Positions 28,124 to 56,557 are shown, counted from the first letter of the stretch. The stretch: 64,000 bases of DNA from an uncultured Bacillales bacterium (GCA_946624985.1 CAMOSQ010000001.1:76733-140732); one strand, 5' to 3'. Program-made: numbers and translations. Notes: generated from the letters alone by a model not told the origin.

Positions 28124-29317
28124 ATGAAAAAAGTTAAGAATTTAAGAGTTGCTGCGGCATTACAAGCAATATTGTTATCAGGGGCTACTTTGTCTGCTTT
28201 TGTTTCTTGTGCTGATGATGATATGGAAGTTGCTGATAATCCAGCTATTGTTTCTGAGATTGTAGATTTAGATAATACTTCTAAAGTAGAGAAAGTGACT
28301 ACTGTTCAGACTGATTATGTCGGTGAATTTAGTGATGAAGTTGAAGATGAATATGTTGATTCTGATGCAGTAATTGTTACTGATCTTAATGAGAATGAAA
28401 GTTCTGAGGAAAAAATTACTATGACTGTTAGTACAGCTTCTAATAGTGAGGATAAAGGTACTACTAAGAGTGAGAAAGGTACTAAAAAAACAAATAAAAG
28501 TACTTCTAAGTCTGGAGATGTGGCAGGTAAGAGTGGTGATGTAACAACTAAAGTTACTGATAAAAAACAAGGTGTAACAACTAAGACTACTGTTAAGGAA
28601 ACTAGTCCAGTTACTAAAAAGACTACTGTTAAGATAACTACAGTTACTAAACCAGTTACAACTAAGACTATTACTACTGAAGCTAAGACAGAGCCAAAGA
28701 CAGAACCTATTACTGAGCCTCCTGTTGTTACTGATGCTCCTAGATCTGATTATAGTATTAATGAAATTTGTTATGATGCAAATGCATTTAATTATTTTGC
28801 TGATAAATTATGTGTTGATTTAAAAACCACTGGTGATGGTAGTTATTATGATTTTGTCAATGGTTCTCCACTTTTTAAGGAATCTAAATATTTATTGGCT
28901 TTATTAAATGAGGGATATATTAATGAAGATGTTTTGATGACTGTTTTTGCTGATTTTTCTTCTTATGATATGGATAGATCGAATAGTTTCTTTGGTGATT
29001 ATTTGTTTCATCAAAGTACTATGTCGAATAAGGTTAAATTTGGTTTGTATTCTTGCGATGATTGCCAATATGGTCAATATATTGATCAAATCAATGATGC
29101 TTATTTGAATAATTACTTTGATCAATTTGCTACTGATCAACTTGTTGATGGTAATATTGAACAAAGATATCTTGATAGTACAGCTATAAGAGTTTATTTT
29201 GATTTATGCGATTATCATGATTTATATACTGAGGATACTGATTTCTTTTTTGAAACTTTCCCATATATGGATAAATTGGAATCGATTGTAAATGGAAGAA
29301 GCTATTCTCTTAATTAA
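28124..29317 (+). CDS. Lipoprotein with a Thr/Lys/Val-rich low-complexity linker
   Basis: Lipobox LSAFVSCADD. The linker reads TTKTTVKETSPVTKKTTVKITTVTKPVTTKTITTEAKTEPKTEPITEPP, followed by a C-terminal globular part with Cys. Confidence 0.6.
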   Translation: MKKVKNLRVAAALQAILLSGATLSAFVSCADDDMEVADNPAIVSEIVDLDNTSKVEKVTTVQTDYVGEFSDEVEDEYVDSDAVIVTDLNENESSEEKITMTVSTASNSEDKGTTKSEKGTKKTNKSTSKSGDVAGKSGDVTTKVTDKKQGVTTKTTVKETSPVTKKTTVKITTVTKPVTTKTITTEAKTEPKTEPITEPPVVTDAPRSDYSINEICYDANAFNYFADKLCVDLKTTGDGSYYDFVNGSPLFKESKYLLALLNEGYINEDVLMTVFADFSSYDMDRSNSFFGDYLFHQSTMSNKVKFGLYSCDDCQYGQYIDQINDAYLNNYFDQFATDQLVDGNIEQRYLDSTAIRVYFDLCDYHDLYTEDTDFFFETFPYMDKLESIVNGRSYSLN

Positions 29318-29321
29318 TGTT

Positions 29322-29349
29322 AAGACAACACAATTTGTGTTGTCTTTTT
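29322..29349 (+). terminator. Rho-independent terminator
   Basis: AAGACAACAC-AATTT-GTGTTGTCTT followed by TTT. Confidence 0.8.
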
Positions 29350-29425
29350 AATTATATAAAAATATTGTTTTTTTTATCTTTTTTTGTTATACTTTTATAT
29401 AGGATAAGGATATTTGGTGATTTAT

Positions 29426-31891
29426 ATGAAGAATATATATGTTAAAAGATTTTTAAATGTCTTATTATTTTTCTTTTTTTTGCTAGGATTTAGTATTGAT
29501 TATGTTTTTGCGGATCCTCAAATTATTATAGATGCTGGTGGCGGAGATTCTGCTTCCACTGCAGCTCCTCGTGCTGGAAATTGGGATACCAGTTTCCAAG
29601 GTTTTGGTGGATATAGAGTAACCTTAGTTGACAAGAATGGTAAAAGAGTATCGGGAACTAGGAGTGTTGATTTTTATAATCCTGGTAATGGTAATAATAT
29701 TTCAACTTATAGGTTAGTTTATGGTGATAAGTATTTATATAGGACTAGTGAAAGATCTAGTGTTCAAGATGCTAATTATGTATCTAAAGATGGTTTGGTT
29801 AGATATGGTTCTAGTTATATTCCTTTTGGAAAATGGCAAAGTACAGGATTATTCGCTGATGTTGAAGCGGATGAAAATTTTAGAGAACAGTATATAAAGA
29901 ATTATGAGAATAATAAAGTTTTTTGCCTTAATGGCGAAGAATGTAATGACAAGTTAGATTTTCTTTCTTTGTTTTTACATCTTTCTAATTATTTAAGTAG
30001 TAGTGATAATTTGTTTTATAATAATACTCAAAAAACAATTGAATTGTTGGATTATTCCATATTTATTGAACATTTATATAAAATAGGTGGTGTAAATGTT
30101 TATGGAACTGGTTTTGAAATGTATTACGACAGTGGTGATCCACTTACTGAAAAAATTAGAAATCAACAAGCACTTGAAAATTTTAGATTTGTATGTTCTT
30201 CTTATTCAAGAAGTGGTCCTTCTGAATTGTTTGAAAATTATCCTAGTGATTATCATGAGTGTTTAGAAAATGGAATGGCATATAATGGTAAAATTTATAT
30301 AGGTAATGCTGGAAACTGGGCAGATTTACCTGGTATTACTCTTTCTACAACTGCTCATGGTGATGTTTGGGATGTTTACAAGGGTAATGTTCAAAAATTT
30401 AAAGATGTTCAAGATAAAATTGCTGTTGGAGTTACTACTGTTATGATGAAAGATGTTGTTGAGCGTCCTCCTTTTGAATCAGAAATGAATTTGTGTAATA
30501 ACGGAATTGTCTCTTTTAAATCTAATTCTAATACTAAATCTAATGTAGAAGAAGGTGATGAGGTTTTCAAAAAAGAACTTTTTAAAACAAATAATAAAGT
30601 TGATGATTCTCAAGCATTGTATTGTTATGATATTGCCACATATAATTATTCTGATACTATTGAATCTTTGGGAGGGATAAAAGCTTTAAATACTAACATC
30701 GAACCTAAACCTATAACAGCTACAATTACTAGACGTTGTTATAATGTTAATGGTAGTGAAAAACTTGCTGATCAAATATCTAAAGATTATAATGAATCAA
30801 TATATATTCGAAATTTATATGGTAATGATTATGAATTTTCTTCTTCAAAATGTAGTGATATTAAAACTGTATCCCATAATGGTGTTTCAGTTGTATCATG
30901 CAAAATAAATTATAGTTTGTCTAATTCTATTACTCTATCTCGTTTTTCTATTAATAGAAATTTGCTTAATAAGGAAAATACGGCTTATATTGATTTTTCA
31001 AATTATAAGGAAAGATTTGGTGCTAGCAATAAATTAATTAACGAAATATTAAATAATGGTATTTCTCTTCCTTCAATTAATTTTTTTAGAGAAGATAAGT
31101 TTATAGAAATTGATGAATACAAGTATAGATTAACTAGCCCATCTTTATCAGGTGATTCTGGTAAATGCTCTTTTAATTATACTATTGAGGCTGATGAATC
31201 TATGCTGTCTTCTAATTCTAATTTTAAATTTAGAGTAATATCCCTAGATAATCCCTTTCCTGCAAGAGATGGAACTTTTAGAATGCCTGGTTTGAACTGG
31301 TTGTCATCAACTGATAATAATGTCTTTGAGTATATAACTAATAATAGAGGTATTAGGTATGTTACTAAATCAAATGATGTTAGTCCTGAGGAAATGTATA
31401 ATAAGGTTGAGCCTATGTATACGGTAACACTTACACCTTCTACTATGATTAAGATTAGAAATTATAATAAGAAGTATGCTTATGATTCTATGTATCAGTC
31501 TATGAGTGCGGATGTTACTTCTCATGGAGCTTATAAGCTTGAGTGTAATTATCACGATTTGGGAAATGGTGATATTGGAAATGGCAGAGAATGTTATAGT
31601 ACATTCTTAAGAAAATATATTAATGATAGTATGGGTGGAGTGTGTTATTTGTCTCCTAGTGAATTAAATAAGGATGTTACAGGTTATAAAAAAGATCTTT
31701 CACCTTTATTATATATTTTGAATAGTTCAAGTACTTCATATAGTATAGATTATGATTTGAATAAAAATAATAGAAATGATGCACTTGATTGGTATATTCT
31801 TCAACCAGAAAATCGAGGAAAAAATATTCAATATTATACTTGTGCAAATAAGACTTTCTTAAGTGGTGGTCCTATTGAGGGAGGTAGGTAG
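29426..31891 (+). CDS. Large secreted protein (822 aa) of unknown function, first gene of the Tad-like operon
   Basis: Signal peptide MKNIYVKRFLNVLLFFFFLLGFSIDYVFA. There are no further TM helices but many Cys. Its stop lies 2 nt before the first minor-pilin-like gene. Confidence 0.55.
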   Translation: MKNIYVKRFLNVLLFFFFLLGFSIDYVFADPQIIIDAGGGDSASTAAPRAGNWDTSFQGFGGYRVTLVDKNGKRVSGTRSVDFYNPGNGNNISTYRLVYGDKYLYRTSERSSVQDANYVSKDGLVRYGSSYIPFGKWQSTGLFADVEADENFREQYIKNYENNKVFCLNGEECNDKLDFLSLFLHLSNYLSSSDNLFYNNTQKTIELLDYSIFIEHLYKIGGVNVYGTGFEMYYDSGDPLTEKIRNQQALENFRFVCSSYSRSGPSELFENYPSDYHECLENGMAYNGKIYIGNAGNWADLPGITLSTTAHGDVWDVYKGNVQKFKDVQDKIAVGVTTVMMKDVVERPPFESEMNLCNNGIVSFKSNSNTKSNVEEGDEVFKKELFKTNNKVDDSQALYCYDIATYNYSDTIESLGGIKALNTNIEPKPITATITRRCYNVNGSEKLADQISKDYNESIYIRNLYGNDYEFSSSKCSDIKTVSHNGVSVVSCKINYSLSNSITLSRFSINRNLLNKENTAYIDFSNYKERFGASNKLINEILNNGISLPSINFFREDKFIEIDEYKYRLTSPSLSGDSGKCSFNYTIEADESMLSSNSNFKFRVISLDNPFPARDGTFRMPGLNWLSSTDNNVFEYITNNRGIRYVTKSNDVSPEEMYNKVEPMYTVTLTPSTMIKIRNYNKKYAYDSMYQSMSADVTSHGAYKLECNYHDLGNGDIGNGRECYSTFLRKYINDSMGGVCYLSPSELNKDVTGYKKDLSPLLYILNSSSTSYSIDYDLNKNNRNDALDWYILQPENRGKNIQYYTCANKTFLSGGPIEGGR

Positions 31892-31893
31892 AT

Positions 31894-32310
31894 ATGCATG
31901 AGTCGTTTTGGGGAACTTTTATAATTGGAGCAGGTGTAGTTATTATTGGTCTTATATTTTTTATGCAAAATGTTACTAATAATGAACAGGAATTGTATTC
32001 GATTTTAAAAGATACGACCGAGGCTGCAATGCTTGATGCTTTTGATTATGATTCTTATTATACTGATACACATGGTAATGGTAAGGTTATTAGAATAGAT
32101 AGAGAGGCTTTTGTTGAAAGTTTTGTTAGAAGATTTTCTCAAAATGCTTCTCTTACAAATACATATGTTATTGAATTTTATGATATTAATGAATATCCAC
32201 CTAAGGTGAGTATTAGAGTTAAATCAAAAACTGGTGGTGTTGTGATGAATCAAGAATTTGATTTTTCTAATTCTAGTCAAATTGATGCAATTCTTGAATC
32301 TGTTGAATAG
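31894..32310 (+). CDS. Minor pilin / TadE-like protein 1
   Basis: A short polar N-terminus is followed by a single hydrophobic helix (MHESFWGTFIIGAGVVIIGLIFF). Supported by position in the Tad-like operon. Confidence 0.4.
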   Translation: MHESFWGTFIIGAGVVIIGLIFFMQNVTNNEQELYSILKDTTEAAMLDAFDYDSYYTDTHGNGKVIRIDREAFVESFVRRFSQNASLTNTYVIEFYDINEYPPKVSIRVKSKTGGVVMNQEFDFSNSSQIDAILESVE

Positions 32311-32322: not shown

Positions 32323-33132
32323 GTGAAAGAAAGTATTAGTTATTCATTTTTACTTAATATTATTATTTTATTTATCTTTGTTTGTGCTGCAATTGTAACT
32401 GGTATTTTTAGTTATTATCGGGCTTTTAAGGCTAATAATATTATTACTAGTGAAATTGAAAAGTATGAAGGTTATAATTGCGAATCAAAGAAAGCTATTG
32501 AAAGAAAATTGGGTGGAGTATCGTATAATGTTCCATTTAATGTAAAGTGTAAAAAAAGTGATGAGAATTGTATTACTGATGATGAAGAAAATGGTAATTA
32601 TGCAGTAGTTGCTTATAACCTTGATTATAAAAGTGGTACATATGCTTTTGATGATAACATGAATTCTAGTGTTTCTTCAGATGGATATACTAAGAGTTAT
32701 CAATATGGTGTTTATACTTATATGTATGTAGATCTACCTGTTGTTTCGAGTATTATTAGAATTCCTGTTTTTTCAAAAACAAAGGAATTGCATGAATTTA
32801 GAGATCTTGTCAGTGTGAAAAGTGTTTCTAATGCAGATTTTGTTATAGATGCTGGTATACTTCCATATTCTATTTCTTCTATGCTTGATTATGAAACTTA
32901 TGAAAAGGTTAAAGGTACTTTTTCTTTTCAACTTCAACAAAATCTTGCTGATAAAGTTGCTGGTAATCCATATAAATATGGAGCTAATCCTGATGAATAT
33001 GGAAATGGTAGGAAAGTATCTGATATTTTGGATCTAAGAGAAGCTTATAAATATTATGATGCATCTGGTCAAAATATTTTAACTGAAGGAAGACATGCAT
33101 GTGGAACAACCGTTGATTGGTCTGTTTTTTAG
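32323..33132 (+). CDS. Minor pilin / TadE-like protein 2
   Basis: VKESISYSFLLNIIILFIFVCAAIVTGIF, the same N-terminal architecture. Confidence 0.4.
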   Translation: MKESISYSFLLNIIILFIFVCAAIVTGIFSYYRAFKANNIITSEIEKYEGYNCESKKAIERKLGGVSYNVPFNVKCKKSDENCITDDEENGNYAVVAYNLDYKSGTYAFDDNMNSSVSSDGYTKSYQYGVYTYMYVDLPVVSSIIRIPVFSKTKELHEFRDLVSVKSVSNADFVIDAGILPYSISSMLDYETYEKVKGTFSFQLQQNLADKVAGNPYKYGANPDEYGNGRKVSDILDLREAYKYYDASGQNILTEGRHACGTTVDWSVF

Positions 33133-33141
33133 GAGGGGTAT

Positions 33142-33750
33142 ATGAAAGGTGCTATTGGTAATGCGTTTATTTTGAATATGGTTATTACTTTTATTATAAT
33201 TTTTTATATGCTTTTAATAGGTGCTGTTGCGTATAGTAAAGCTTATAAGGTCAATTCTTATTTAGTTAATTCGTTGGTTTCTTTTGATGAGAGATATGGT
33301 AGATATGACAATGGGGCTTACATATTAGATTCTGATGATGTATATTCTATATATGATAGTACTGTCTTTGATGTTGAAAACGATAAAAAAACTGGTGTTA
33401 AAAACACATATGTTGATAAGGTTAAGACTTGGGATCAGGCAGTTAATGATTATTTAGCTAGATCAGGTTATATTATAAATGGAACTGGTGCTGGTACCTG
33501 TGCAAAGGTTATTGATGATAAGTATCAGTTAATTAGAGATAATAAGAATGGATATGATTATTGCTTGTATATAAATGTTTTATATGATTCTAAAGCTGCT
33601 AGTATTGCTGGAAAAGCGGATGATCCTTATATAGATCAAAAGTATATGTATAAGGTTGTTTCATATATGAAGTTTGATTTTCCTATTGTTGGTAGTTTTA
33701 TGAAACTTCCAATTAAGAGTGAAACAAAAGTTATTACTAGATTTAAATAA
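33142..33750 (+). CDS. Minor pilin / TadE-like protein 3
   Basis: MKGAIGNAFILNMVITFIIIFYMLLIGAV, the same N-terminal architecture. Confidence 0.4.
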   Translation: MKGAIGNAFILNMVITFIIIFYMLLIGAVAYSKAYKVNSYLVNSLVSFDERYGRYDNGAYILDSDDVYSIYDSTVFDVENDKKTGVKNTYVDKVKTWDQAVNDYLARSGYIINGTGAGTCAKVIDDKYQLIRDNKNGYDYCLYINVLYDSKAASIAGKADDPYIDQKYMYKVVSYMKFDFPIVGSFMKLPIKSETKVITRFK

Positions 33751-33829: not shown

Positions 33830-34633
33830 ATGAATTCAATTACTAGATTTTTTAAGAACAAAAATACTGTTACTGTTCTTGGTATAGTTGCGATTGTTGC
33901 TATGCTTTGGGGTGTTTATACCTATCAGATTAATAAACAGGTAAAGCCTAAAAGTGTACCTGTTGCTGCTGTAACTATTCAACCGAAGACTCAGATTACT
34001 GCAGATATGATTACTTATGTTGATGTTCCATCTGCATATATTTCTGATAATGCAATCACTGATAAGTCAAAAATTTTATCAATGTATTCAAATTTTAATA
34101 CTGTTATTCCTGCGGGAAGTATGTTTTATACTGATGCATTGACTACTGAAAAAGCTTTACCTAATTATTTGTTAAAACAATTAAAAGAAGGTGAATTTTT
34201 ACTTGCATATGATCTTTCTTCTGCAGAGGTTTCTTCTACTTGGGGAATAATGCCTGGAGATAAAATTGATTTATTTATGAGAGTTAATTCTGATGAAGGT
34301 TCTGTAATGCTTGGTAAATTTTTAGAGAATGTTGAAGTTTTGGATATTGTTGATGAAAATGGTAATAGTACTTATGATGTAAATGATGGATCTAGAGCTG
34401 CAAAATATTTGATATTTGCTGCACAAGAGGATATTTTCTTAATGTTAAAAAGAGCAAGTTATCTTGATGTTGAATTGATGCCTGTACAACATGGTGCATG
34501 GATTAATGATGATGATTTATCAATTACAATGACTACACAAGAATTAATTAATTATATTAGATCGCGTGTTGTGTCATTATCTACGGATCCAGTTGCTGGT
34601 CAAAATAGAAATACAATTCAACAAGTTCAATAG
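33830..34633 (+). CDS. cpaB: Flp pilus assembly protein CpaB/RcpC-like (SAF domain)
   Basis: N-terminal TM helix (VTVLGIVAIVAMLWGVY), then VPVAAVTIQPKTQITADMITYVDVP, typical of the CpaB SAF domain. Located immediately upstream of the ATPase. Confidence 0.6.
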   Translation: MNSITRFFKNKNTVTVLGIVAIVAMLWGVYTYQINKQVKPKSVPVAAVTIQPKTQITADMITYVDVPSAYISDNAITDKSKILSMYSNFNTVIPAGSMFYTDALTTEKALPNYLLKQLKEGEFLLAYDLSSAEVSSTWGIMPGDKIDLFMRVNSDEGSVMLGKFLENVEVLDIVDENGNSTYDVNDGSRAAKYLIFAAQEDIFLMLKRASYLDVELMPVQHGAWINDDDLSITMTTQELINYIRSRVVSLSTDPVAGQNRNTIQQVQ

Positions 34634-37463: not shown

Positions 37464-37493
37464 GATGACACTTTTGTGTTATCTTTTTTTTTT
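37464..37493 (+). terminator. Rho-independent terminator
   Basis: GATGACAC-TTTT-GTGTTATC followed by T10. Confidence 0.8.
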
Positions 37494-41120: not shown

Positions 41121-41121
41121 T

Positions 41122-46298: not shown

Positions 46299-46821
46299 GT
46301 ATACTGTTGATGATATTCCTGTTAAGGATATTGTTAATGGTACTATTGTTCTTAAGAATAATCAAAAGGTCACTGGTGTTAAAATTGAACCTAGAAATAT
46401 TTTTATTCTTGAACCTAATATGCAAGATATGATTATTACTAATTTAAAAAATGTTTATAATCTTATTGATTATGAGTTTTGGATTATAGCTGCTGATAGA
46501 CCTGTTGATATTAATGTTTATTTATCTCAGTTACAGCTTTTGTATAATGCTACACAAGATGTTGCTAGAAAGAAATTAATTATTCAGGATATGAATAAGG
46601 CTAATATGTTTGTTAATAACAATGTTGTTGATACTGAGTATTATTTATTATTTAAGGAAAAGGATAATGATTTAATTACTAAGAGAATTAAGAATTTGAT
46701 TAATAGTTTTGCTTCTGCTGGTTTATCTACTAAGCAGGTTACTAATGATGATTTAAGAATTATTCTTGATAATTTCTTGAATGGTGGACAAACTACTGGA
46801 TTTGGGACGGTGATTAGTTAA
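46276..46821 (+). CDS. N-terminal fragment/domain of VirB4-type ATPase (separate ORF)
   Basis: DDIPVKDIVNGTIVLKNNQKVTGVKIEPRNIFILEPNMQDMII... is the pattern usually found at the N-terminus of Gram-positive VirB4 (PrgJ/Orf16-type). The stop overlaps the next ATG (TAATG). Confidence 0.6.
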   Translation: MAKATTSKYTVDDIPVKDIVNGTIVLKNNQKVTGVKIEPRNIFILEPNMQDMIITNLKNVYNLIDYEFWIIAADRPVDINVYLSQLQLLYNATQDVARKKLIIQDMNKANMFVNNNVVDTEYYLLFKEKDNDLITKRIKNLINSFASAGLSTKQVTNDDLRIILDNFLNGGQTTGFGTVIS

Positions 46822-48622: not shown

Positions 48623-50599
48623 ATGAAGGCTTTTTTAATGAAATTACTTAAAAATAAGGCAAAAAGTGCTTTGAGTAATTCTGAATCAAAGCCTTCTTTT
48701 TCACCATATTTAAAATATGCCATATTTGGTGGTAGTGGATTTGTTTTTTTTCTATTAGGAATAATTGTTATATGTGTTATTATTTTCGCACCTGTCTTTC
48801 TAGCAGAAGAGTATTTTGGTAGTGGTAAAGATGTTGCTGCATATGATTATTGTGGAGATTCTTGTGGAGAAAATGAATCTAAGTTTTATACTAAATTAAA
48901 TGAAGTTAAGGAATCATATAAATCACGTGGTATTACTATTGATACTAATTTAATTAGTGGGACTGTTTTTTATGGTAGTACTTTAAGTAGCGAGAGTTTT
49001 AATTCTGATGATCCTGATAGCGATGATTTGATTGATGATTCTAAAATACATGTTTCTGATGTTAAACCTTTAGCGTCTAATATGGTTAGTGGTAGTTCTC
49101 TTGATTATGGTAAGTATCGTAATTATTTAATTAATATATATATTCCTAAGAGATTTAAAGATTTATATACTGATGATAAAGGTATTGAGAGAATTGCAGA
49201 TGATATAATGAGTTATGCTAGTTTAAAGGGTGATGCAATTGCTTCTAGTGGTTCTCTTGGGGTAAGTTGTACTTCTATTACTTTAAAAGAAGATGATGGT
49301 ACTATAAAACCACATGTTCTTGAGGAATATGTGGCTGGAGTAGTTGAGGCTGAAAATGGTGGAGCAGGTCCAGAGGCTAGAAAAGTTCAGGCTCTTGCCG
49401 CTAGAACTAATGCGGTTACTCATTGTAATAGTGTTATTGATAATTCTACTAATTTTCAAAAGTATAAGACTCCTTCTTTTTCTGCTATTGAGGCAGCAGA
49501 GGCAACAAAAGGGTTAGTATTAACTTATGATGGTGAAATGCTAAAAGAAATGCCTTTTGCTTCATATCCAATGTCTAATTATAGAGGTGGATTTCCTGGA
49601 TATGAGGCTTTGGGACATGTATGTAGTGATGTAAAGTGTACTACAGGTAGTGATGGTAGACAGTGGTGTGATACAACTTTGTATAGAGTCCCTAATATGG
49701 ATAGTTTTCAGTTAAGTATGCCTGATACTAATTTAAATGGTTCTCTGTGGAATGGATTACATTTGGATAATCAAAAAGGTCACTGTTATGGAGTTAGTCA
49801 GGTTGCATCAATTTATTATGAGAATGAACTTAATTATGATTATAAAAAAATGATAGAAGTATTTTTTTCTGATGGTGTTGAAATTACTTCTATACCAACT
49901 GGATATAATGGTGAAGTTGCAAGTACTGATGGAACGAATTTTTTACCATATGAATTGGATAGATTTTTAAATGAAAAAGGTTCAAGTGTTCAGGCTTTTA
50001 ATTTATCTATCAAACAGGCAGTTATGGCTTCGGGGCCTGGGACTAGAGCAGGTGTTGTTGCTGCTGCTAATGCACTTATAAATGGTTTATCTCAATATGG
50101 TGTTAAACTTCCATATATATCTTCAACTGGTGCTAGTGGTACAGCGTCTGGTAAGTATAAGGAATATGGTGTTGCTTCTGATTGGGGAAAGACAGGTTCT
50201 TGGTATAGTGCAGTTTATAACAATACTTATACACAAACAGGATTGGATTGTAGTGGCTTTGTTTCTTGGGCAATATATAATGCAGGTTATGTATATGGTT
50301 ATAATGGTCAAGAATGCAATTCTGTTTGTTATTTAAGAAATATTGGTGTTTCTCATGATTTTGCTTCATTTAGGGGGCAACCTGGTGATTTAGTTGTTGA
50401 AAATGGTCATATTGGTATGATTATTGGGGTTAGTGATTCAGAATATTCTGTTGCAGAGGAACATGGTGGTGATAATGGGCTTGAGGTTACTCATTATAGT
50501 TTTAATAATCCACGTGGACAATTTACACATATTCTTGATATGACTGAATACTATTCTAATAGTTCTAATATGAATCTTTCATATTATCAAGGAGGTTAA
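48623..50599 (+). CDS. Bifunctional cell-wall hydrolase: SpoIID/LytB-like plus NlpC/P60 domains, membrane-anchored
   Basis: TM helix FVFFLLGIIVICVIIFAPVFL. The SpoIID-like motif is EEYVAGVVEAENGGAGPEARKVQALAARTNAV. NlpC/P60 is shown by GLDCSGFVSWAIYNAGY ... GHIGMIIG. Confidence 0.75.
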   Translation: MKAFLMKLLKNKAKSALSNSESKPSFSPYLKYAIFGGSGFVFFLLGIIVICVIIFAPVFLAEEYFGSGKDVAAYDYCGDSCGENESKFYTKLNEVKESYKSRGITIDTNLISGTVFYGSTLSSESFNSDDPDSDDLIDDSKIHVSDVKPLASNMVSGSSLDYGKYRNYLINIYIPKRFKDLYTDDKGIERIADDIMSYASLKGDAIASSGSLGVSCTSITLKEDDGTIKPHVLEEYVAGVVEAENGGAGPEARKVQALAARTNAVTHCNSVIDNSTNFQKYKTPSFSAIEAAEATKGLVLTYDGEMLKEMPFASYPMSNYRGGFPGYEALGHVCSDVKCTTGSDGRQWCDTTLYRVPNMDSFQLSMPDTNLNGSLWNGLHLDNQKGHCYGVSQVASIYYENELNYDYKKMIEVFFSDGVEITSIPTGYNGEVASTDGTNFLPYELDRFLNEKGSSVQAFNLSIKQAVMASGPGTRAGVVAAANALINGLSQYGVKLPYISSTGASGTASGKYKEYGVASDWGKTGSWYSAVYNNTYTQTGLDCSGFVSWAIYNAGYVYGYNGQECNSVCYLRNIGVSHDFASFRGQPGDLVVENGHIGMIIGVSDSEYSVAEEHGGDNGLEVTHYSFNNPRGQFTHILDMTEYYSNSSNMNLSYYQGG

Positions 50600-50600: not shown

Positions 50601-51272
50601 ATGAAAAAATGCATGATACTTATTTGTTTGATTTTTATTACTGGTTGTAGCGCTAGGTATACTATTGAATTTAACGATAAAAGTATAAAAGATAAATTGT
50701 CTGTTTATGGTATTGATTTACATTCTTATAATGATATTAAAGAAGGAGTTTATTCTCCAATTCCTGCATTTAAGGATGCAATTATAAATTTGGAGGAACC
50801 TATTAAAAATGAGGGTGTTGAATATTATAATATAAGTGGTGACGATAGTAATGCCTATTTAGATTATAAATTTGAATTATCTGATTTTGAAGATTCTTAT
50901 TTTGCTAATACTTGTTATGACTATTTTAAGGTTTTTCAAGAAAAAGATGAGATTATTATTTCTACTGGTAAAAACTTTAAGTGTTTTTTTCCTGGTCGTA
51001 ATTTAGATTCAGTTGATATTGTTATTAAATCTAATCATAAGATTATATATAATAATGCTGATGAAGTTAAGAATAATGAATATATATGGCATATTAACAA
51101 AAGTAATAAGGATGATGCAAATATACAGATTTCTTTTTCAAAAGATTATAATGAAAAAAAGAAGAGTATTAATATTGCTCAGGTTTCTTTATATATAGGT
51201 ATATTCGGGGTAGTTGCTTTAGTTATTGCTTTGTTTGTTTTAATTAAAAATAAGCGTGTTAATAAAATTTAG
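50601..51272 (+). CDS. Lipoprotein with a C-terminal TM anchor
   Basis: Lipobox LIFITGCSA and C-terminal helix LYIGIFGVVALVIALFVLI. Confidence 0.55.
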   Translation: MKKCMILICLIFITGCSARYTIEFNDKSIKDKLSVYGIDLHSYNDIKEGVYSPIPAFKDAIINLEEPIKNEGVEYYNISGDDSNAYLDYKFELSDFEDSYFANTCYDYFKVFQEKDEIIISTGKNFKCFFPGRNLDSVDIVIKSNHKIIYNNADEVKNNEYIWHINKSNKDDANIQISFSKDYNEKKKSINIAQVSLYIGIFGVVALVIALFVLIKNKRVNKI

Positions 51273-51348: not shown

Positions 51349-52302
51349 ATGAAAAAATATTTTAAAAAACTTTCTAATGATTCTATGTTTAAATTGGTTT
51401 TTTCGAATAAGAAATATATGAGTTTGTTATTGGAAAAAATTCTTGGAAGAAAAATTGATGATTATTCTATAATTAATAAAATTGATAATAAAGAAATAGA
51501 TGAGAATAATATCATAGAACTATTAAAACAAGAATTAGTTACAAGGAATATTAATGTTAAGAAGAAGACGGTTGATTTACTTGTTAAAAGAAAAAATGAA
51601 ATCATTGATATTGAGGTAAATAATATATTTGATGAAGATATAAGAAAAAGAAATTTTGCTTATCTATCAAATATTTATTCAAATATATTAGAACATGGAC
51701 AAGATTATGGTGAACAGCCAGGATGTATACAAATTAATATTTGTAATAACATTGAGGAAAACTACGAATATGATAATCATTGTTTGCTGGGGGAAAACTA
51801 TAAAAATAAATTTATAGATAATATTAATTTTTTGGTATATGATGTTGCCAAATATAAAAAAATGTTGTATACTGGTAACAAGAAGTTAATTCAAAAATAT
51901 TCTCATATAATTATGTTTGATTGTGATGAAGAAGAACTAGAATTACTTGGAAAATATGATTTTATGGTAAAGGAGATTGGTGATATGGTTAAAAAGTATA
52001 ATGAGGATAACATATTTAGTTTTATGACTGATGAAGAATCATATGAGAGATTATTTAGGTCCCAAATGAAAACAGCTACAAAGAAAGGTTATAACCAAGG
52101 TTTAGAAAAAGGATTTAATCAAGGGATTGATAAAGGATTTAATCAGGGGATTAGTCAAGGGATTGAGCAAGGGATTGAGCAAGGTATTGCACAGAATAAG
52201 CTAGATATTGTTTTTAAAATGTTAAAGAGAAAGTATCCTATATCTGATATTTCAGAAATAACAGGATATTCACAAGATTATTTAAAGTCAATAAAAATAT
52301 GA
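51349..52302 (+). CDS. PD-(D/E)XK nuclease family transposase-like protein (Rpn/YhgA-like), copy 2
   Basis: About 80% aa identity to the 27040-27942 product over ~240 aa (KLSNDSMFKL.FSNKKYMS.LLEK..., TVDLLVKRKNEIID.EVNN, CIQINICNNIEENYEYDNHCLLGENY). The C-terminal Q/E-G-[IFL] repeat tract is longer. Confidence 0.6.
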   Translation: MKKYFKKLSNDSMFKLVFSNKKYMSLLLEKILGRKIDDYSIINKIDNKEIDENNIIELLKQELVTRNINVKKKTVDLLVKRKNEIIDIEVNNIFDEDIRKRNFAYLSNIYSNILEHGQDYGEQPGCIQINICNNIEENYEYDNHCLLGENYKNKFIDNINFLVYDVAKYKKMLYTGNKKLIQKYSHIIMFDCDEEELELLGKYDFMVKEIGDMVKKYNEDNIFSFMTDEESYERLFRSQMKTATKKGYNQGLEKGFNQGIDKGFNQGISQGIEQGIEQGIAQNKLDIVFKMLKRKYPISDISEITGYSQDYLKSIKI

Positions 52303-52322: not shown

Positions 52323-52377
52323 CTTGTATTGATTTACTTTATTTAATGTGTTAAACTATTTATAGTTGAGGTGCTTT

Positions 52378-53520
52378 ATGAAGAAGAAATTTTATAAAAT
52401 TTTATTTTTTCTTTTATTGTTTATGCCAGTGTGTGTTAATGCTGCAGATTATTTGTTGTGTGGAAATGATAAGAAACTTCCTTTAGTATTTGGACAAATT
52501 TTATCAATTATTTTTGTTCTTATTAAAATAATGGTCCCAGTTTTGCTTGTAATTATGTCTATGGTTTCTTTTATAAAAGCAGTTGTTTCGGGTAAGGTTG
52601 ATGATGAGTTAGCACGTGTTAAGCAGGTTTCTATTCAAAGAATTATTTCTGCTGTTATTATATTTTTTATTTTTTCAATTGTTAATTTTGTAATTAATTT
52701 ATCTGTTTCTACTAATAATAGTTTTAGTAGTTGTCTTTATTGTTTGTTTAATTCTGATCATTGTGAGCAGGCAGATGATGAGCTTGCAAAGTTGTGTCCT
52801 GGCTTAATGAGTCAGCAGAAGGATTATGATGTTAATTGTAAGTATATAGGTGGAATTGGTGATCGTATTAATTATGCTGATACTGGTGATACTGGAGTTC
52901 CTGATTATGCTAATTATGGTAGTAATTCTTCTGGAACCATTACAGAAAGTCCTACTGGTGAATATACTACTTGGAGGCAAGGATCGCCTGAATGGGGTAG
53001 TCGTTGGTATGGTGGATATGATTCAAAAGGTAATAAGGTTGATATTGCACATTATGGTTGTAATTTTACTTCTATAGCTATTCAAATTAAGAGATCTGGA
53101 TTACCTACAACTATTAATCCATTTAATCCTGGTACTATGTTTGATTATATGAAGCCAAAAGGGTATCTTAGTTCGGGTGGATCAACTATAAATTATGGTG
53201 TTTTTAAAGAGGTTGCTCCTGGTTTTGAATTTGATGGCCAAAAAAACTTATCTTTAAATGATACTGAAACATATAATATATTGTCTGGTTTATTAAAGGA
53301 TGATAAATATCCTATTGTTCACGTTAAATCAAATAATGGTAAGCCTTTTGGTACGAGTGGTCATTATGTTGCGGCGATTGGTTATACTGATAAAGATATT
53401 ATAATTGTTGATCCTGCTAATACAAATTGTACAAGGTTGTTTACTTGTAAACCTGAGCTTGATAGAAGTAATGGATATCTTATAGCTGGTAAAACTTCTT
53501 ATTGGAGGGTTGATAGATGA
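52378..53520 (+). CDS. 2-TM pilin-like module (paralog 4, N-terminal) fused to a papain-like cysteine peptidase domain (C39-like)
   Basis: Signal peptide FFLLLFMPVCVNA. The module is VPVLLVIMSMVSFIKAVVSGKVDDELARVKQVSIQRIISAVIIFFIFSIVNFVINL. The C-terminal domain has WRQGSPEWGSRWYGG...HYGCNFTSIAIQI (Cys) and SGHYVAAIGYTDKDIIIVDP (His). Confidence 0.5.
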   Translation: MKKKFYKILFFLLLFMPVCVNAADYLLCGNDKKLPLVFGQILSIIFVLIKIMVPVLLVIMSMVSFIKAVVSGKVDDELARVKQVSIQRIISAVIIFFIFSIVNFVINLSVSTNNSFSSCLYCLFNSDHCEQADDELAKLCPGLMSQQKDYDVNCKYIGGIGDRINYADTGDTGVPDYANYGSNSSGTITESPTGEYTTWRQGSPEWGSRWYGGYDSKGNKVDIAHYGCNFTSIAIQIKRSGLPTTINPFNPGTMFDYMKPKGYLSSGGSTINYGVFKEVAPGFEFDGQKNLSLNDTETYNILSGLLKDDKYPIVHVKSNNGKPFGTSGHYVAAIGYTDKDIIIVDPANTNCTRLFTCKPELDRSNGYLIAGKTSYWRVDR

Positions 53521-54260
53521 AAAAAAGGTTAATAATTATGTTTGTTTTTGCTTTCATTTTTATATTATTTCAAATATTTTTAATGATTAGTAATAATAAA
53601 TCATATGTTGTTTTTTCTGATAAATCTATTATTAAAGTTTCTGGTAAAAAATATAAGTTTGTTGATTTTAAGGATAGTTATTTAGTTAATAAAAAATTTG
53701 ATGTTTATGATTATAATAAGTATATTGGTAAATATAATGTAAAATTTTTTGAAGATAGATATAAGGTTTATAATAAAAAAGATGTTGCTTCGTTTAAAAA
53801 TTCTTTTGTTGGTATTTATTCAAATGATAATCAAGTTAAATTAAATACTGCTAGTGTTGATGAATTGAACTTATTGGATATTAATTTTTTATATAAAATT
53901 TTGTCTGATAATAATATTAGTTTTAATGGTCAGTTGACTATAAATGAAAAACGAGCAATAAATTCTAATAATGGTTATTATTTATATAATGTTTCTTATA
54001 ATGATATGTATAGTGATAATGAAAAGTTATTTTCTATTGTTTATATTTCTAATTTGAAAAATTATTCTATAATTAAATCAAGTTTTGTTAATAATTCTGA
54101 ATTTAATAAGTTAGTTTCATATAACATTGATAGTGTTATTGATTTAGATGGTGATTCAATTGATGAAGTTATTATTTCTGATTTGATGTTTAGTCAAAGT
54201 GGTACTGGTAGCAAAGAAATTTATTCATTTATTGATGGTAAGTATGTGTTGTCTTATTGA
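53517..54260 (+). CDS. Membrane-anchored hypothetical protein (size and topology compatible with a VirB8/TcpC-like component)
   Basis: N-terminal TM helix LIIMFVFAFIFILFQIFLMI. ATGA overlap with the upstream gene. No motif recognised. Confidence 0.4.
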   Translation: MKKRLIIMFVFAFIFILFQIFLMISNNKSYVVFSDKSIIKVSGKKYKFVDFKDSYLVNKKFDVYDYNKYIGKYNVKFFEDRYKVYNKKDVASFKNSFVGIYSNDNQVKLNTASVDELNLLDINFLYKILSDNNISFNGQLTINEKRAINSNNGYYLYNVSYNDMYSDNEKLFSIVYISNLKNYSIIKSSFVNNSEFNKLVSYNIDSVIDLDGDSIDEVIISDLMFSQSGTGSKEIYSFIDGKYVLSY

Positions 54261-54289
54261 AAAAATTGTTTCTTTTGAAACAGTTTTTT
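54261..54289 (+). terminator. Rho-independent terminator
   Basis: AAAAATTGTTTC-TTTT-GAAACAGTTTTT. Confidence 0.75.
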
Positions 54290-54376
54290 GTTATAGGTAA
54301 TGTTTTCTCTTGAATATAAATTGTAGTAAGTGTATAATATATTTAGTTGTTTACATTAATTTTTATAGGAGGGTAT

Positions 54377-56557
54377 ATGAAATTAAAATTTAGGGCTGAA
54401 CCAAAAGATATCGCTATATTTCTTGTGTTTAGTTTGTTTTTACTATATTTGGTTTGTTTAATAATTTTAAATTTGTCTTCATTAGCCCAAACAGGTACTT
54501 TTTCTGGCTTTAACCCATTTCCTGCTTTTGAGGCTAAGTATGTTGTAGCAACTTTGGTTTTATATGTTGTTATTTTAGTTGTTATTATTTCAAGTGTTAG
54601 CTCTCATTTTTTTGAGCGAGAAAAAGGTATTGGTTTTTCTACGGGTCCTAAAAAAGAAAAGAATTATTCTAGATGGTTAACTACTAAAGAAATGAAAAAA
54701 GTTCTTAAATGTGTTCATCCTGGTGATGTTACATCTCAGTATGCAGGTATTCCTTTAATTAATAATGGTAAAGAAATATGGGTTGATAATGGTGAATATC
54801 ACAATTTAATTATTGGTTCTACTGGTAGTGGTAAGACTGAAATGCTTGTTCAACCTATGGTTAAGTGTTTAGCTAAGAAGGGTGAGTCGATGATTATTAC
54901 TGACCCTAAAGGTGAAATATATGAGAATAATGCTAATGAATTAAGGGAAAAGGGTTATAATATTGTACTTTTAAATTTTCGTGAACCCCAGAAGGGTAAT
55001 TCATGGAATCCTTTAGGTCTTCCATATTCATTGTATAAGGAAGGTAATCAGGATAAGGCTAATGAGCTTTTGGATGACCTTGCTATGAATATTCTTTATG
55101 ATGAAAAAAGTCAAAATGCTGATCCATTTTGGGAAAAGACTAGTGCTGATTATTTTTGTGGTTTATCTCTTGCTTTGTTTGAAGATGCAAGTGAGGAACA
55201 AATTAATTTAAATTCTATTAATTTGATGACTACTGTTGGTGAGGAAAAGTTTGCTGGTAGTACTTATGTTAAAGAGTATTTTAGTACTAAGGATCCTGCA
55301 AGTCCAGCATATGTTAATGCATCTAGTACATTGATGGCTCCTACTGATACTAAGGGTAGTATATTATCTGTTTTTAAACAAAAAATTAAATTATTTACGT
55401 CTAGAGAAAATTTGAGTGAGATGCTTTCTGTAAGTGATTTTGATATGAAGGAGATTGGACGTAAGAAAACTGCTGTTTTTTTAGTCATTCAAGATGAAAA
55501 GAAAACATATCATTCTTTGGTTACTATTTTTATTAAACAGTGTTATGAAACTTTGATTGATGTTGCTCAAGAAGTTGGTGGTAAACTTCCTTATAGAACT
55601 AATTTTATTCTTGATGAGTTTGCTAATATGCCACCTCTTAAGGATGTAACAACTATGGTTACAGCTGCTCGTAGTAGAAATATTAGGTTTAATTTTATAA
55701 TACAAAACTTTGCTCAATTATCTCAGGTTTATGGTAAGGAAAATGGAGATACTATTAAAGGTAACTGTGGTAATATTATATATCTTATTAGTAGTGAGTT
55801 AGCTGCACTTGAAGAAATTAGTAAGATGTGTGGTGAGGTTAAATCTAAGGAAAAAGAAAAAACTTCATCTATGCCTCTTGTAACTGTTAGTGATTTGCAA
55901 CGTTTACCTCAGTGGACTATGATTATTTTGCGTCTTAGAATGATGCCTTTTAAGACTAAGATGAAACCTAATTGGCAGATGGAAAAGGAAAATTTATGGG
56001 GTGCTAAGTATTCTAAGGCATCATATCCTACAAGAGAAAAACGTAAGATTGAACTTTTTGATATAAAAGGGTTTGTTCAGAAGGCAAAAGAGGAAAGTAT
56101 TAATAAAATGATGGGTGGTTCTACTCCTTTTATGCCAGGTAATTCTCCTTTTGGTGGTATGGCTTCAAGCAGTTCTCCTTTTGGTAATAACTCTCTTTTT
56201 GGAGGTATGTCATCTAATAGTTTTCCTTTTGAATCAAAAACTAATAATTCTTTTAATGTTGATGATCTTGTTAAAAGAATTGATGCTAAAATTGCTGAGT
56301 TAGAAGCTGAAGAAGAAAATGAGAAAAAAGAAAAAGCGCAGAATACATCGGAAGTTGATTCATTTACTGTTGTTGATAAGTCTCATGATATCGATGATGT
56401 ATTTGATGTTCCCGATGAAGATAATGATGTTGTTGATATTGATAAAGAAATAGAAAATGTAAAAAGTGATGTTAAAGATAATTTTGATTCTAATTATAAA
56501 GATGATAAAGGTATAACTGATGATCAGTTCTTTGATGATTTCTTTTCTGATGAATAA
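54377..56557 (+). CDS. virD4: VirD4/TraG-type type IV coupling protein
   Basis: Two N-terminal TM helices, Walker A GSTGSGKTE, ITDPKGE, and Walker B FILDEFANMP. The C-terminal extension has FG-type repeats and an acidic/aromatic tail. Confidence 0.85.
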   Translation: MKLKFRAEPKDIAIFLVFSLFLLYLVCLIILNLSSLAQTGTFSGFNPFPAFEAKYVVATLVLYVVILVVIISSVSSHFFEREKGIGFSTGPKKEKNYSRWLTTKEMKKVLKCVHPGDVTSQYAGIPLINNGKEIWVDNGEYHNLIIGSTGSGKTEMLVQPMVKCLAKKGESMIITDPKGEIYENNANELREKGYNIVLLNFREPQKGNSWNPLGLPYSLYKEGNQDKANELLDDLAMNILYDEKSQNADPFWEKTSADYFCGLSLALFEDASEEQINLNSINLMTTVGEEKFAGSTYVKEYFSTKDPASPAYVNASSTLMAPTDTKGSILSVFKQKIKLFTSRENLSEMLSVSDFDMKEIGRKKTAVFLVIQDEKKTYHSLVTIFIKQCYETLIDVAQEVGGKLPYRTNFILDEFANMPPLKDVTTMVTAARSRNIRFNFIIQNFAQLSQVYGKENGDTIKGNCGNIIYLISSELAALEEISKMCGEVKSKEKEKTSSMPLVTVSDLQRLPQWTMIILRLRMMPFKTKMKPNWQMEKENLWGAKYSKASYPTREKRKIELFDIKGFVQKAKEESINKMMGGSTPFMPGNSPFGGMASSSSPFGNNSLFGGMSSNSFPFESKTNNSFNVDDLVKRIDAKIAELEAEEENEKKEKAQNTSEVDSFTVVDKSHDIDDVFDVPDEDNDVVDIDKEIENVKSDVKDNFDSNYKDDKGITDDQFFDDFFSDE

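Follow-up and report, generated by a model that had tools for sequence, protein, structure and literature searches.

We analysed 64,000 nucleotides of DNA from an uncultured Bacillales bacterium (GCA_946624985.1, CAMOSQ010000001.1:76733-140732), referred to below as the window, and found that it carries a cluster in which genes for a type-IV-filament-like motor are joined to genes for a type IV secretion system (T4SS) with VirB6, VirB4 and VirD4. The best reading of this cluster is that it is a vertically inherited, chromosomal and relaxase-less descendant of a Gram-positive conjugation apparatus of the plasmid-borne kind, now a fixed core trait across a clade of gut Bacilli and Mycoplasmatota with small genomes. 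A preliminary description of the window had considered a domesticated apparatus, and this explanation fits the data best. It is fairly probable that we are dealing with a domesticated derivative of the apparatus of pLS20/pXO2-type plasmids, in which a filament module provides contact and a T4SS fed by VirD4 moves a macromolecule for the cell.

The composite cluster is kept in hundreds of genomes of uncultured gut Bacilli, Tenericutes and Mycoplasmatota, with motor proteins that are 73-92% identical. Homologues of its secretion ATPase number in the thousands (the top 120 clusters are 76-95% identical), and at least 567 matching stretches were found in GTDB contigs with one genome per species. 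The best 80 of these, in which the ATPase is 73-91% identical, come nearly all from metagenome-assembled genomes (MAGs) of uncultured gut Bacilli, Tenericutes and Mollicutes, and include Acholeplasma sp. CAG:878, Candidatus Fimihabitans (Mycoplasmatota incertae sedis according to NCBI) and a closed genome of 1.26 Mb. Within the loci, the median identity is 78% for the ATPase, 80% for VirB4, 73% for the TrsD-like protein and 67% for a membrane protein of 300 amino acids (aa). Relatives of VirD4 were found in 346 metagenome contigs and are 57-92% identical across 80 metagenome loci. VirB6 was reached 5.8-10 kb (median 7.2 kb) downstream of the ATPase in 47 of the 80 species-level loci; most of the other loci end too early to judge the presence of a T4SS. 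With few exceptions to this linkage, the two modules form a genuine conserved unit, as previously proposed, and do not adjoin by chance.

The genes abutting the cluster differ between genomes and are ordinary housekeeping genes, such as those for ScpAB or for RmuC, RNase R and SmpB, which agrees with what had been said of the flanks. According to Pfam, 150 pooled flank open reading frames (ORFs) included RmuC (16), ScpB (7), ScpA, RNase R, SmpB, tRNA synthetases and response regulators; none of the recurrent families stood for a relaxase, integrase, transposase or Rep protein. The DNA recombination protein RmuC is the commonest gene downstream of the rhodanese gene that closes the cluster (16 of about 85 sampled right-flank ORFs; for example 12729-13691 in locus L086 and 3941-4984 in L148), often together with DUF2238, RNase R and SmpB. 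This adjacency could reflect ancestral synteny or a functional link to DNA processing.

The flanks of the window itself (AI-2E, DNMK, Cmk, a short AlaRS and PBP) are common to its close relatives. A comparison of relatives for presence or absence and for att-like borders showed syntenic flanks and none of the variable presence typical of an integrative and conjugative element (ICE). No tRNA, Rfam, integrase or att borders were found at the edges of the cluster; the window has a single tRNA, at 12327, and a single recombinase, whose gene (121-1172) is split. The absence of relaxase, Rep, FtsK-type and integrase domains from the cluster was confirmed with Pfam and NCBIfam, and across about 165 related loci there was no relaxase, integrase or replication gene in or beside it. 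Moreover, the relaxases MobP2 of pLS20 and MobP3 of pBMB67 gave no tblastn match in 80 VirD4 loci. In locus L096, VirB4 (92% identical) and VirD4 (77%) are conserved to an extent comparable with the flanking AlaRS (85%), and surface components diverge fast (VirB6 42%, hydrolase 32%). Because of the stable housekeeping setting, the lack of mobility genes and the core-like conservation, we conclude that the apparatus is vertically inherited, selected and owned by the cell, unlike an ICE or a decaying remnant.

Extent and gene order

Mapping all proteins of the window onto the 80 species-level loci revealed a canonical gene order. It begins with the membrane protein mem529, which heads the cluster in 69 of the 80 loci, and with the secreted protein sec209, which comes next in 65. 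These are followed by a large variable secreted protein in some loci, a DUF5411 protein, a CpaB-like protein, the ATPase, the 300-aa protein and a 267-aa protein. The small pilin gene or genes stand directly after the 267-aa gene, and the genes for two minor pilins of 269 and 202 aa come after the pilin. Then follow the TadZ-like gene, one to four or more T4SS_pilin genes, variable genes, VirB6, VirB3, the N-domain of VirB4 (VirB4N) and VirB4. Behind VirB4 the relatives, and the 80 metagenome loci likewise, have a gene for a wall hydrolase of the M23, SpoIID+CHAP or SpoIID+NlpC/P60 type, then between one and three genes for small envelope proteins, then VirD4 and finally a rhodanese of 96 aa. 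In loci L135 and L158, mem529 was matched downstream of VirD4, by one weak match each, which suggests a permuted yet adjacent order.

The window departs from this order by a rearrangement. Its YfhO-pilin block stands to the left of mem529, but in the close relative L092 (11980-14700) YfhO and a pilin come after the 267-aa gene and before the TadZ-like gene. Therefore the system begins at about 21690, upstream of the left border at 28124 that had been given before, since the relatives place the pilin genes, mem529, sec209 and probably YfhO within it. On the right, the border has to be moved from 56557 to 56907, so that the rhodanese gene is taken in. Between the original borders the run of plus-strand genes is unbroken as described, but it holds 26 non-nested ORFs of at least 60 aa and not 31. 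Its co-directionality is uninformative, because nearly the entire window is on the plus strand: there are only three credible minus-strand genes in 64 kb, and the GC skew is positive throughout. The features are as follows.

21690-24098, plus strand: YfhO-family membrane glycosyltransferase (Pfam YfhO, E 2e-135)
24152-24397, plus: small pilin copy 1, 81 aa with MKEAAG as its start; N-terminus invariant across 40 orthologues
24463-24681, plus: small pilin copy 2, 72 aa, of the same family as copy 1
24818-26407, plus: mem529, a polytopic N-terminal domain with an extracellular domain; conserved first gene
26391-27020, plus: sec209, secreted, with a C-terminal membrane anchor and conserved Cys (position in relatives, conservation pattern)
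27040-27942, minus: PD-(D/E)XK (Rpn-like) "transposase", paralogue a; an insertion, not core (Pfam PDDEXK_2)
28124-29317, plus: lipoprotein, 397 aa, in close relatives only (L092)
29414-31891, plus: large variable secreted protein, 825 aa (position in relatives)
31894-32310, plus: DUF5411 minor-pilin-like protein (Pfam DUF5411, E 4e-44; leader MKESFWG)
32323-33750, plus: minor-pilin-like pair, 269 and 202 aa (hydrophobic helix behind the shared leader M[KR]E[AS]xG)
33830-34633, plus: CpaB/RcpC-like (SAF-domain) protein (weak Pfam RcpC, E 0.008)
34642-35748, plus: secretion-superfamily ATPase of the FlaI/CpaF/VirB11 group, 368 aa (Pfam T2SSE, 2e-28)
35758-37463, plus: two polytopic membrane proteins, 300 and 267 aa (hhalign, position after the ATPase)
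37546-38595, plus: TadZ-like protein, N-terminal receiver-like region and degenerate ParA/MinD-like region (position, weak profile match)
38652-39751, plus: two VirB2-like T4SS_pilin paralogues (PF18895)
39792-43980, plus: variable block of two unknowns (442 and 79 aa), an SPFH-like protein (336 aa) and a secreted protein of 495 aa with a T4SS_pilin end, in close relatives only (L092)
43993-45966, plus: VirB6-like channel protein (Pfam TrbL_4, 5e-11)
45984-46298, plus: PrgI/VirB3-like protein (profile match to the pBMB67 PrgI family, conserved position)
46276-46821, plus: TrsD-like VirB4 N-domain protein, 181 aa (Mycoplasma ICE VirB4 model NF045975, tiled)
46821-48605, plus: VirB4 ATPase, 594 aa (same model)
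48623-50599, plus: cell-wall hydrolase, SpoIID and NlpC/P60 (Pfam)
50601-51272, plus: lipoprotein with a C-terminal anchor, 223 aa; homologues just upstream of VirD4 in many loci
51349-52302, plus: PD-(D/E)XK (Rpn-like) paralogue b, an insertion (Pfam PDDEXK_2, 2e-10)
52366-53520, plus: T4SS_pilin module with C39-like peptidase, 384 aa (Pfam Peptidase_C39_2, 6e-5; pilin module 2e-22)
53517-54260, plus: bitopic 247-aa protein, putatively in a VirB8-like position; homologues in several relatives
54347-56557, plus: VirD4 coupling protein (conju_CD1115; Pfam T4SS-DNA_transf, 4.5e-52)
56617-56907, plus: rhodanese-domain protein, 96 aa; conserved last gene

Conjugative plasmids and other known systems

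The preliminary description rested on the premise that the joining of such a filament module to a T4SS is unknown in conjugation systems of monoderm bacteria, and it raised the possibility of a new mating-pair-formation (MPF) type. We found that the operons of pLS20 and of pAW63, pXO2 and pBMB67 have nearly all of the components in similar order, together with MobP relaxases, so that the premise falls. Because syntenic plasmid homologues exist for nearly every conserved component, the cluster is not a new mating-pair type; the same composite makes up an existing, poorly understood plasmid type. As in pLS20 and pAW63, a secretion-ATPase module is linked to VirD4, VirB6, VirB3 and VirB4 genes, which was seen with profiles, BLAST and synteny alike.

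In the plasmid collection, the best match of the ATPase is that of the Bacillus subtilis pLS20 family (34% identity, gene 37, annotated tadA), and the best match of VirB4 is of the Bacillus thuringiensis pAW63/pBMB67 type (29.5%). The order in pLS20 is adhesin, further genes, a 126-aa protein, tadA, 267-aa and 245-aa proteins, small ORFs, VirD4, VirB6-like, DUF5592, a 192-aa protein, VirB4 and, after further genes, the MobP2 relaxase. In pBMB67 it is MobP3 relaxase, VirD4, TrbL, PrgI, a 227-aa protein and VirB4, and then, after further genes, an 851-aa protein, a 134-aa protein, SAF, an AAA_31 ATPase, the T2SSE ATPase, 305-aa and 244-aa proteins, an 89-aa protein and DUF4320. The matches of the cluster proteins are given below; their E-values were obtained with profiles of MAG orthologues against a database of 53 proteins and have to be read along with synteny.

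DUF5411: pBMB67 134 aa, 1e-7; pLS20 126 aa (gene 36), 1e-6
CpaB-like: pBMB67 SAF protein, 2e-35
300-aa protein: pBMB67 305 aa, 9e-11; pLS20 267 aa, 8e-4
267-aa protein: pBMB67 244 aa, 6e-13; pLS20 245 aa, 1e-5
202-aa minor pilin: pBMB67 DUF4320, 4e-4
TadZ-like: pBMB67 AAA_31 ATPase, 9e-4, over the Walker region; a weak match
VirB3: pBMB67 PrgI-family protein, 5e-7
VirB4N (TrsD-like): pBMB67 227 aa, 6e-22
VirB4: pBMB67 630 aa, 9e-86
VirB6: pLS20_p028 protein, 7e-6

VirD4 scores 294.5 bits against the NCBIfam family conju_CD1115, above the cut-off of 250 that the plasmid VirD4 proteins also pass.

With pLS20 (genes 34-54) the cluster shares a large adhesin, the DUF5411-like gene 36, the "VirB11"/tadA gene 37, the membrane proteins of genes 38 and 39, small hydrophobic proteins, a VirD4 of the CD1115 family, VirB6-like and VirB3-like proteins, a small protein with VirB4, and a hydrolase. 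pLS20 differs in being a plasmid: it encodes the MobP2 relaxase along with auxiliary relaxosome proteins, and it has modules for replication and regulation. CpaB-like or TadZ-like genes and T4SS_pilin copies could not be recognised in it, and its VirD4 lies upstream of VirB6. With pAW63, pXO2, pBT9727 and pBMB67 of the Bacillus cereus group it shares TrbL, PrgI, the 227-aa TrsD-like protein, VirB4 and VirD4. Their second module likewise comprises an 851-aa protein, DUF5411, SAF/CpaB, an AAA_31 ATPase (TadZ/CpaE-like), the T2SSE ATPase, membrane proteins of 305 and 244 aa, a small hydrophobic protein, and DUF4320. These systems, however, are plasmid-borne and carry the MobP3 relaxase, their two modules are separated by about 9 kb that hold unrelated genes, their ATPase is larger (491 aa), and no T4SS_pilin paralogues were detected in them. 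What is unusual in the window and its relatives is the chromosomal, relaxase-less and clade-wide fixation of an apparatus of the plasmid type.

In the plasmid literature the ATPase is called VirB11, genes 36 and 38-41 of pLS20 are listed as unknown, and the operon is said to encode no pilus components; work from 2024 states that conjugation in Gram-positive bacteria appears to be pilus-less. The plasmid "VirB11" modules contain small hydrophobic proteins of Flp size, one of 47 aa in pLS20 (13191-13334 in L089, containing DRMYWVIGAVLVVGALIG) and one of 89 aa in pBMB67 (35728-35997 in L090). Gene 36 of pLS20 (L089, 9446-9826) begins with MKGSIT, which resembles the MKExxG leader of the window. 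These proteins are candidate pilins in operons published as pilus-free.

The chromosomal T4SSs of Patescibacteria, e.g. of Candidatus Southlakia epibionticum, are similar in many respects. They occur in monoderms with reduced genomes, are lineage-wide, carry no relaxase, and derive from MPF-FATA systems with TrsD plus VirB4, PrgI/VirB3, VirB6 and multiple VirB2-like T4SS_pilin paralogues; a peptidase or lysozyme lies downstream of virB4, as the hydrolase does here. In a comparison with published descriptions, all of these architectural features are present in our cluster. Published work states that the TrsD-like protein is the commonest T4SS component in Patescibacteria, where TrsD plus VirB4 is typical, and that the relaxase-less chromosomal T4SS, with its multiple divergent pilin paralogues, is essential for epibiotic growth. 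According to a T4SS nomenclature review from 2025, Patescibacteria are the only monoderms in which VirB2-like T4SS pilins are known to date, and also the only ones whose chromosomal T4SS is needed for life. Patescibacteria differ in that they belong to another phylum, VirD4 is usually unlinked to virB4 and not essential, and no ATPase module of the FlaI/CpaF/VirB11 type is attached, the type IVa pili being separate. Since the host here belongs to the Bacillota/Mycoplasmatota, our system can be no more than a sister or parallel case.

Among NCBIfam models, VirB4 and VirB6 come closest to those of the Mycoplasma ICE (MICE), namely the Mbov_0397 family for VirB4 and the Mbov_0396 family for VirB6, with scores below the cut-offs. 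MICE live in hosts related to the one studied here and mediate unconventional chromosomal transfer. They differ from the cluster in being mobile and variably present, with a DDE transposase and a single-gene VirB4, and they have no wall hydrolase, pilins or secretion-ATPase module.

Tad/Flp pili (Cpa of Caulobacter, Tad of Aggregatibacter) and the cluster of gut TANB77 would share with the filament half a CpaB-like protein, a putative ParA-like TadZ/CpaE, an ATPase of the FlaI/CpaF clade, two putative platform proteins, paralogous or fused, as well as several pseudopilins and a major pilin of very small size. The filament half differs from them by the lack of a Flp motif and of a TadV peptidase in the cluster, by family scores below the cut-offs, by its ATPase of 368 aa (420-640 aa in Tad/Flp) and by being embedded in a T4SS cluster; the Tad-like cluster of TANB77 gut Clostridia has been described without a T4SS. 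Hybrid systems such as the thin pilus of IncI R64 and PAPI-1 also combine a type-IV-filament machine with transfer of the VirB4/VirD4 type; they differ in being diderm mobile elements with type IVb pili and relaxases. Of the parts of an MPF-FATA conjugative element, VirB4 and VirD4 are present, and a relaxase/oriT and an integration or replication module were not found in the cluster, the loci or the flanks. As far as our incomplete coverage of the literature goes, we found no earlier description of this system in RF39, Tenericutes, gut MAGs or uncultured gut Bacilli.

Components of the two halves

In the major pilin and the three minor-pilin-like families alike, a hydrophobic helix comes after a short leader, M-[KR]-E-[AS]-x-G, and this would look like the pattern expected of the substrates of a single prepilin peptidase. 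Across 40 orthologues, the small pilin has an invariant N-terminus (MKEAAG/EANxTV), a hydrophobic helix and a Cys-containing head. YfhO, a glycosyltransferase of the GT-C type, adjoins the small pilin gene in two gene orders (those of the window and L092) and in about six other loci. It is probably an accessory of the system, and its position suggests glycosylation of the pilin or of another component. For mem529, Pfam and NCBIfam gave no match. That it might be a cryptic prepilin peptidase found no support, as it has neither a GxGD-type motif nor a family match. The 397-aa lipoprotein is a lineage-specific accessory. At the position of the 825-aa secreted protein (822 aa had been reported) the relatives have a large protein of 850-999 aa or none, and a large surface protein is encoded at the corresponding place in pLS20 and pBMB67; we regard the 825-aa protein as a candidate tip or adhesin component.

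The labels CpaB and CpaF/TadA stand in part. There is a weak CpaB/RcpC match and an ATPase of the T2SSE family, but the Tad-specific family scores stay below their cut-offs. For the CpaB-like protein, NCBIfam pilus_cpaB reached 31 bits with a cut-off of 71, and the PDB search with its family was empty. For the ATPase, the scores against PDB sequences are nearly equal (FlaI 68.7, CpaF 67.6 and VirB11 66 bits), and the NCBIfam scores are all below the cut-offs (VirB11 125, TrbB 96.5, conjugal TadA 95.5 and FlaI 91 bits). Foldseek with an AlphaFold2 (AF2) model of the ATPase (pLDDT 71) placed FlaI (2e-20), CpaF (2e-19) and archaeal GspE ahead of VirB11 (3e-14 or weaker).

The 300-aa and 267-aa proteins are a putative platform of the TadB/TadC type. 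In hhalign comparisons the 300-aa family matched the N-terminal half (97.9% probability) and the 267-aa family the C-terminal half (99.9%) of fused homologues of about 500 aa, and this split/fused pattern would correspond to TadB plus TadC versus the PilC/FlaJ architecture. Compared with each other, the two families gave 85% probability with a broader profile, which marks them as distant paralogues, and a negative result with narrow alignments. Matches to T2SSF were weak and sub-threshold, in 3 of 44 distant homologues. The fused homologues include P0408, P0452, P0459 and about 20 other representatives, and the platform family is widespread beyond the clade studied here. The TadZ-like gene is kept in 59 of the 80 loci, between the minor pilins and the T4SS pilins. 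Taken together, the filament half appears to be a divergent type-IV-filament-like module and cannot be classed as a Tad system.

In the T4SS half, the labels VirB6-like, PrgI/VirB3-like, VirB4, SpoIID+NlpC/P60 hydrolase and VirD4 are backed by Pfam or NCBIfam, that of PrgI/VirB3 by a profile match. The VirB6-like protein matched the NCBIfam model of the Mycoplasma ICE transmembrane protein Mbov_0396 at 1.5e-10, below the cut-off. For VirB4, the Mycoplasma ICE model gave 341 bits and conju_CD1110 gave 162 bits. NF045975 (894 positions) is tiled by the TrsD-like protein (99-276) and VirB4 (295-891). The preliminary description spoke of a split VirB4; there are indeed two separate ORFs, but no gene has been disrupted, as the two-gene arrangement is kept in all relatives and in pBMB67. 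A separate TrsD-like N-domain protein beside VirB4 is known from the pGO1 subclass of MPF-FATA. An alternative genetic code as the reason for the split was rejected, since the ORFs are in different frames with an overlap of 1 nt and the two-gene form is conserved and matches TrsD plus VirB4. The SpoIID+NlpC/P60 hydrolase is the VirB1 analogue. For the 223-aa lipoprotein no family match was obtained; it is a conserved accessory of the T4SS.

The family profile of the T4SS_pilin finds exactly the four copies of a pilin-like module with two transmembrane helices that had been described: 38652-39023 (2e-48), 39053-39751 (1e-38), the N-terminus of 52366-53520 (2e-22) and the C-terminus of 42493-43980 (2e-13). 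Two copies stand alone, one is fused to the C39-like peptidase and one ends the 495-aa secreted protein. PF18895 (T4SS_pilin) is matched by 16 of 42 family members, with a best E-value of 1.4e-6. Fusions of T4SS_pilin to a C39-like cysteine peptidase or to a secreted domain of 400 aa also occur in L073, L075, L077, L079, L084 and L136, with varying copy number, and could be displayed or delivered effectors. Homologues of both the 384-aa and the 247-aa protein are present in several relatives. The SPFH match of the 336-aa protein is weak. PDB searches with the unknown ORFs at 39792-41120 and 53517-54260 were empty, which decides neither way on a hidden relaxase or VirB8 fold; the 442-aa protein encoded at 39792-41120 had no NCBIfam match either. 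The 96-aa single-domain rhodanese stands almost always behind VirD4 (L086-L088 and most of L093-L172) and closes the cluster.

The PD-(D/E)XK genes are not conserved. Paralogues a, at the system's edge, and b, within it, are inverted relative to each other, with 72.5% aa identity and 84% nt identity over 833 nt. Paralogue a is missing from most relatives, and in the close relative L087 only an HTH_Rpn_C remnant is found at the site of b. The inverted pair may have driven local rearrangement.

The cluster probably comprises several transcription units, because hairpins and promoter matches lie inside it; all of these calls are pattern matches only. A strong terminator-like hairpin with a T-run stands directly after the 267-aa gene (37462-37485), and further hairpins follow the gene of the 397-aa lipoprotein (29322-29346) and the rhodanese gene (56906-56927). 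A promoter-like site with 11 of 12 matching positions lies ahead of the first T4SS_pilin gene (38599-38627), and a match of 12 of 12 at 41347-41374. In the canonical order, the terminator behind the 267-aa gene leaves the pilin, minor-pilin and TadZ genes on the side of the T4SS.

Possible function and competing explanations

From the gene content, conservation, chromosomal context and plasmid homology, a way of filament assembly, a coupling of the two halves and a direction and nature of the substrate can be proposed. The ATPase of the FlaI/CpaF/VirB11 group, the two paralogous platform proteins, the CpaB-like and the TadZ-like protein would assemble a short filament from the three minor pilins and the pilin of 70-90 aa, which the linked YfhO may glycosylate, with the large variable surface protein possibly as the contact element. 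This filament would make or tighten contact with another cell. The channel of VirB6, VirB3, the TrsD-like protein with VirB4, the VirB2-like pilins and the wall hydrolase, fed by VirD4, might then move a macromolecule across the envelope. Given a stable locus that lacks relaxase, integrase and replication genes, the machine would no longer spread itself. By analogy, it may serve the cell as the essential chromosomal T4SS does in epibiotic Patescibacteria. The strong conservation of VirD4 argues for a substrate recruited from the cytoplasm, i.e. for export, and against simple DNA uptake.

Several observations weigh against this domesticated contact apparatus. A working DNA-conjugation system would likewise show a strongly conserved VirD4, and a relaxase could be encoded elsewhere in the genomes, beyond the loci and flanks scanned. 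The ATPase could be a plain T4SS ATPase, because NCBIfam ranks VirB11 at the top. Formation of a filament is a prediction from the genes, and the platform and TadZ assignments are indirect. Direct sequence proof of a GspF/TadB-like identity was sought for the 300-aa and 267-aa proteins, but all approaches came back empty: there was no Pfam, NCBIfam or PDB match, no similarity to Escherichia coli HofC in hhalign, and for the 300-aa protein the AF2 model was poor (pLDDT 68) and its Foldseek search gave nothing. The TadZ-like protein also had no match in Pfam, NCBIfam or PDB. Hence the labels TadB/C-like and TadZ-like draw on architecture and weak transitive matches and have no direct backing from these databases. 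The Flp motif G/xxxxEY is absent from the Flp-sized pilin, which has no Pfam match, and no A24 (TadV/CpaA) prepilin peptidase was found among the window ORFs scanned or the recurrent flank families; such a peptidase could lie elsewhere in the genome. The earlier wording of a complete-looking Tad machine was therefore an overstatement. Finally, about five loci (L007, L012, L067, L069 and L082), and also L001, have the ATPase module without T4SS genes within 10 kb, and thus the halves are separable.

VirD4 is a highly conserved member of a conjugal-transfer family, VirB4 and VirB6 are closest to Mycoplasma ICE proteins, whose machinery supports unconventional chromosomal transfer, the closest homologous systems are all bona fide conjugation operons, and the gene of the recombination protein RmuC is frequently found just downstream. 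All this would suit a system that still carries out DNA conjugation or chromosomal exchange, as a form of sex, by means of a distal or unrecognised relaxase or by a relaxase-independent route like that of the Mycoplasma ICE. We consider this unlikely, though a serious alternative, since the roughly 165 loci and their flanks yielded no relaxase, oriT-associated or integrase genes, the locus keeps to syntenic chromosomal sites without ICE-like variability, and the analogous relaxase-less system of Patescibacteria is essential for growth and has been judged non-conjugative.

The filament module and the T4SS might also be two independent machines, a Tad-like adhesion pilus and an uncoupled T4SS, whose adjacency was inherited from a plasmid ancestor. 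The terminator-like hairpin after the 267-aa gene, the good promoter match before the T4SS pilins and the few genomes without adjacent T4SS genes would be in line with this, as would the stand-alone Tad-like clusters of other gut Firmicutes such as TANB77 and the type IV pilus of IncI plasmids, which is merely accessory to their T4SS. However, the pairing recurs in two distinct plasmid families and most of the clade, the pilin, minor-pilin and TadZ genes are usually grouped with the T4SS genes and not with the ATPase, and where the sequence reached far enough we found no T4SS module of this type without TadZ and pilin genes upstream, which makes independence of the halves improbable. A functionless, decaying remnant of an integrated plasmid or ICE can be dismissed almost entirely: mobility genes are absent and the window has Rpn-like PD-(D/E)XK insertions and a rearranged pilin block, but the core ORFs are all intact, most relatives are free of frameshifts and stop codons, and the identity of 73-92% among motor proteins over hundreds of species indicates strong purifying selection.

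Beyond the domesticated derivative as such, we tentatively suggest that filament motor and T4SS could be a single, chromosomally fixed, piliated contact machine, which would be core and perhaps essential in a large clade of uncultured small-genome Bacilli and Mycoplasmatota of the human and animal gut. We hold this wider proposal to be doubtful. If it were true, it would be a second, independent case among monoderms, beside the Patescibacteria, of a conjugation apparatus exapted for partner-dependent life, be it epibiotic, parasitic or dependent on an obligate DNA or nutrient exchange. The unexplained "VirB11 module" of pLS20/pXO2-type plasmids would then build the long-sought conjugative filament of Gram-positive bacteria. 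Each ingredient of the cluster is known. The combination is new: chromosomal, relaxase-less and clade-wide, with VirB2-like pilins and a filament motor, outside Patescibacteria. A relaxase-less T4SS with VirB2-like pilins, fixed in hundreds of species of gut Bacilli and Mycoplasmatota, stands against the view that such systems are confined to Patescibacteria, and provides a second data point on the domestication of conjugation machines. It also gives a concrete hypothesis on how uncultured small-genome gut bacteria interact with partners. The filament-motor module is homologous to uncharacterised genes of well-studied Bacillus conjugative plasmids; genes 36-41 of pLS20 in B. subtilis offer a tractable model for filament building and its role in transfer.

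Some further genes of the window lie outside the cluster. The tyrosine recombinase is split into two ORFs, 121-456 with the N-terminal SAM-like domain and 555-1172 with the catalytic domain; a methyltransferase and proteins that carry helicase-associated (HA) domains come next. The recombinase is located about 20 kb upstream of the system, with housekeeping genes and a tRNA-Trp (12327-12400) in between. Two secreted thioredoxin-fold proteins (6087-6878 and 17772-18230) show weak Pfam matches to TraF of the F plasmid; they may take part in disulphide formation in Cys-rich pilins and surface proteins, or may be unrelated. The AlaRS of the right flank (59326-61068 in the window, 14894-16633 in L087) has about 580 aa and consists of the catalytic and tRNA_SAD domains, without the usual C-terminal part.

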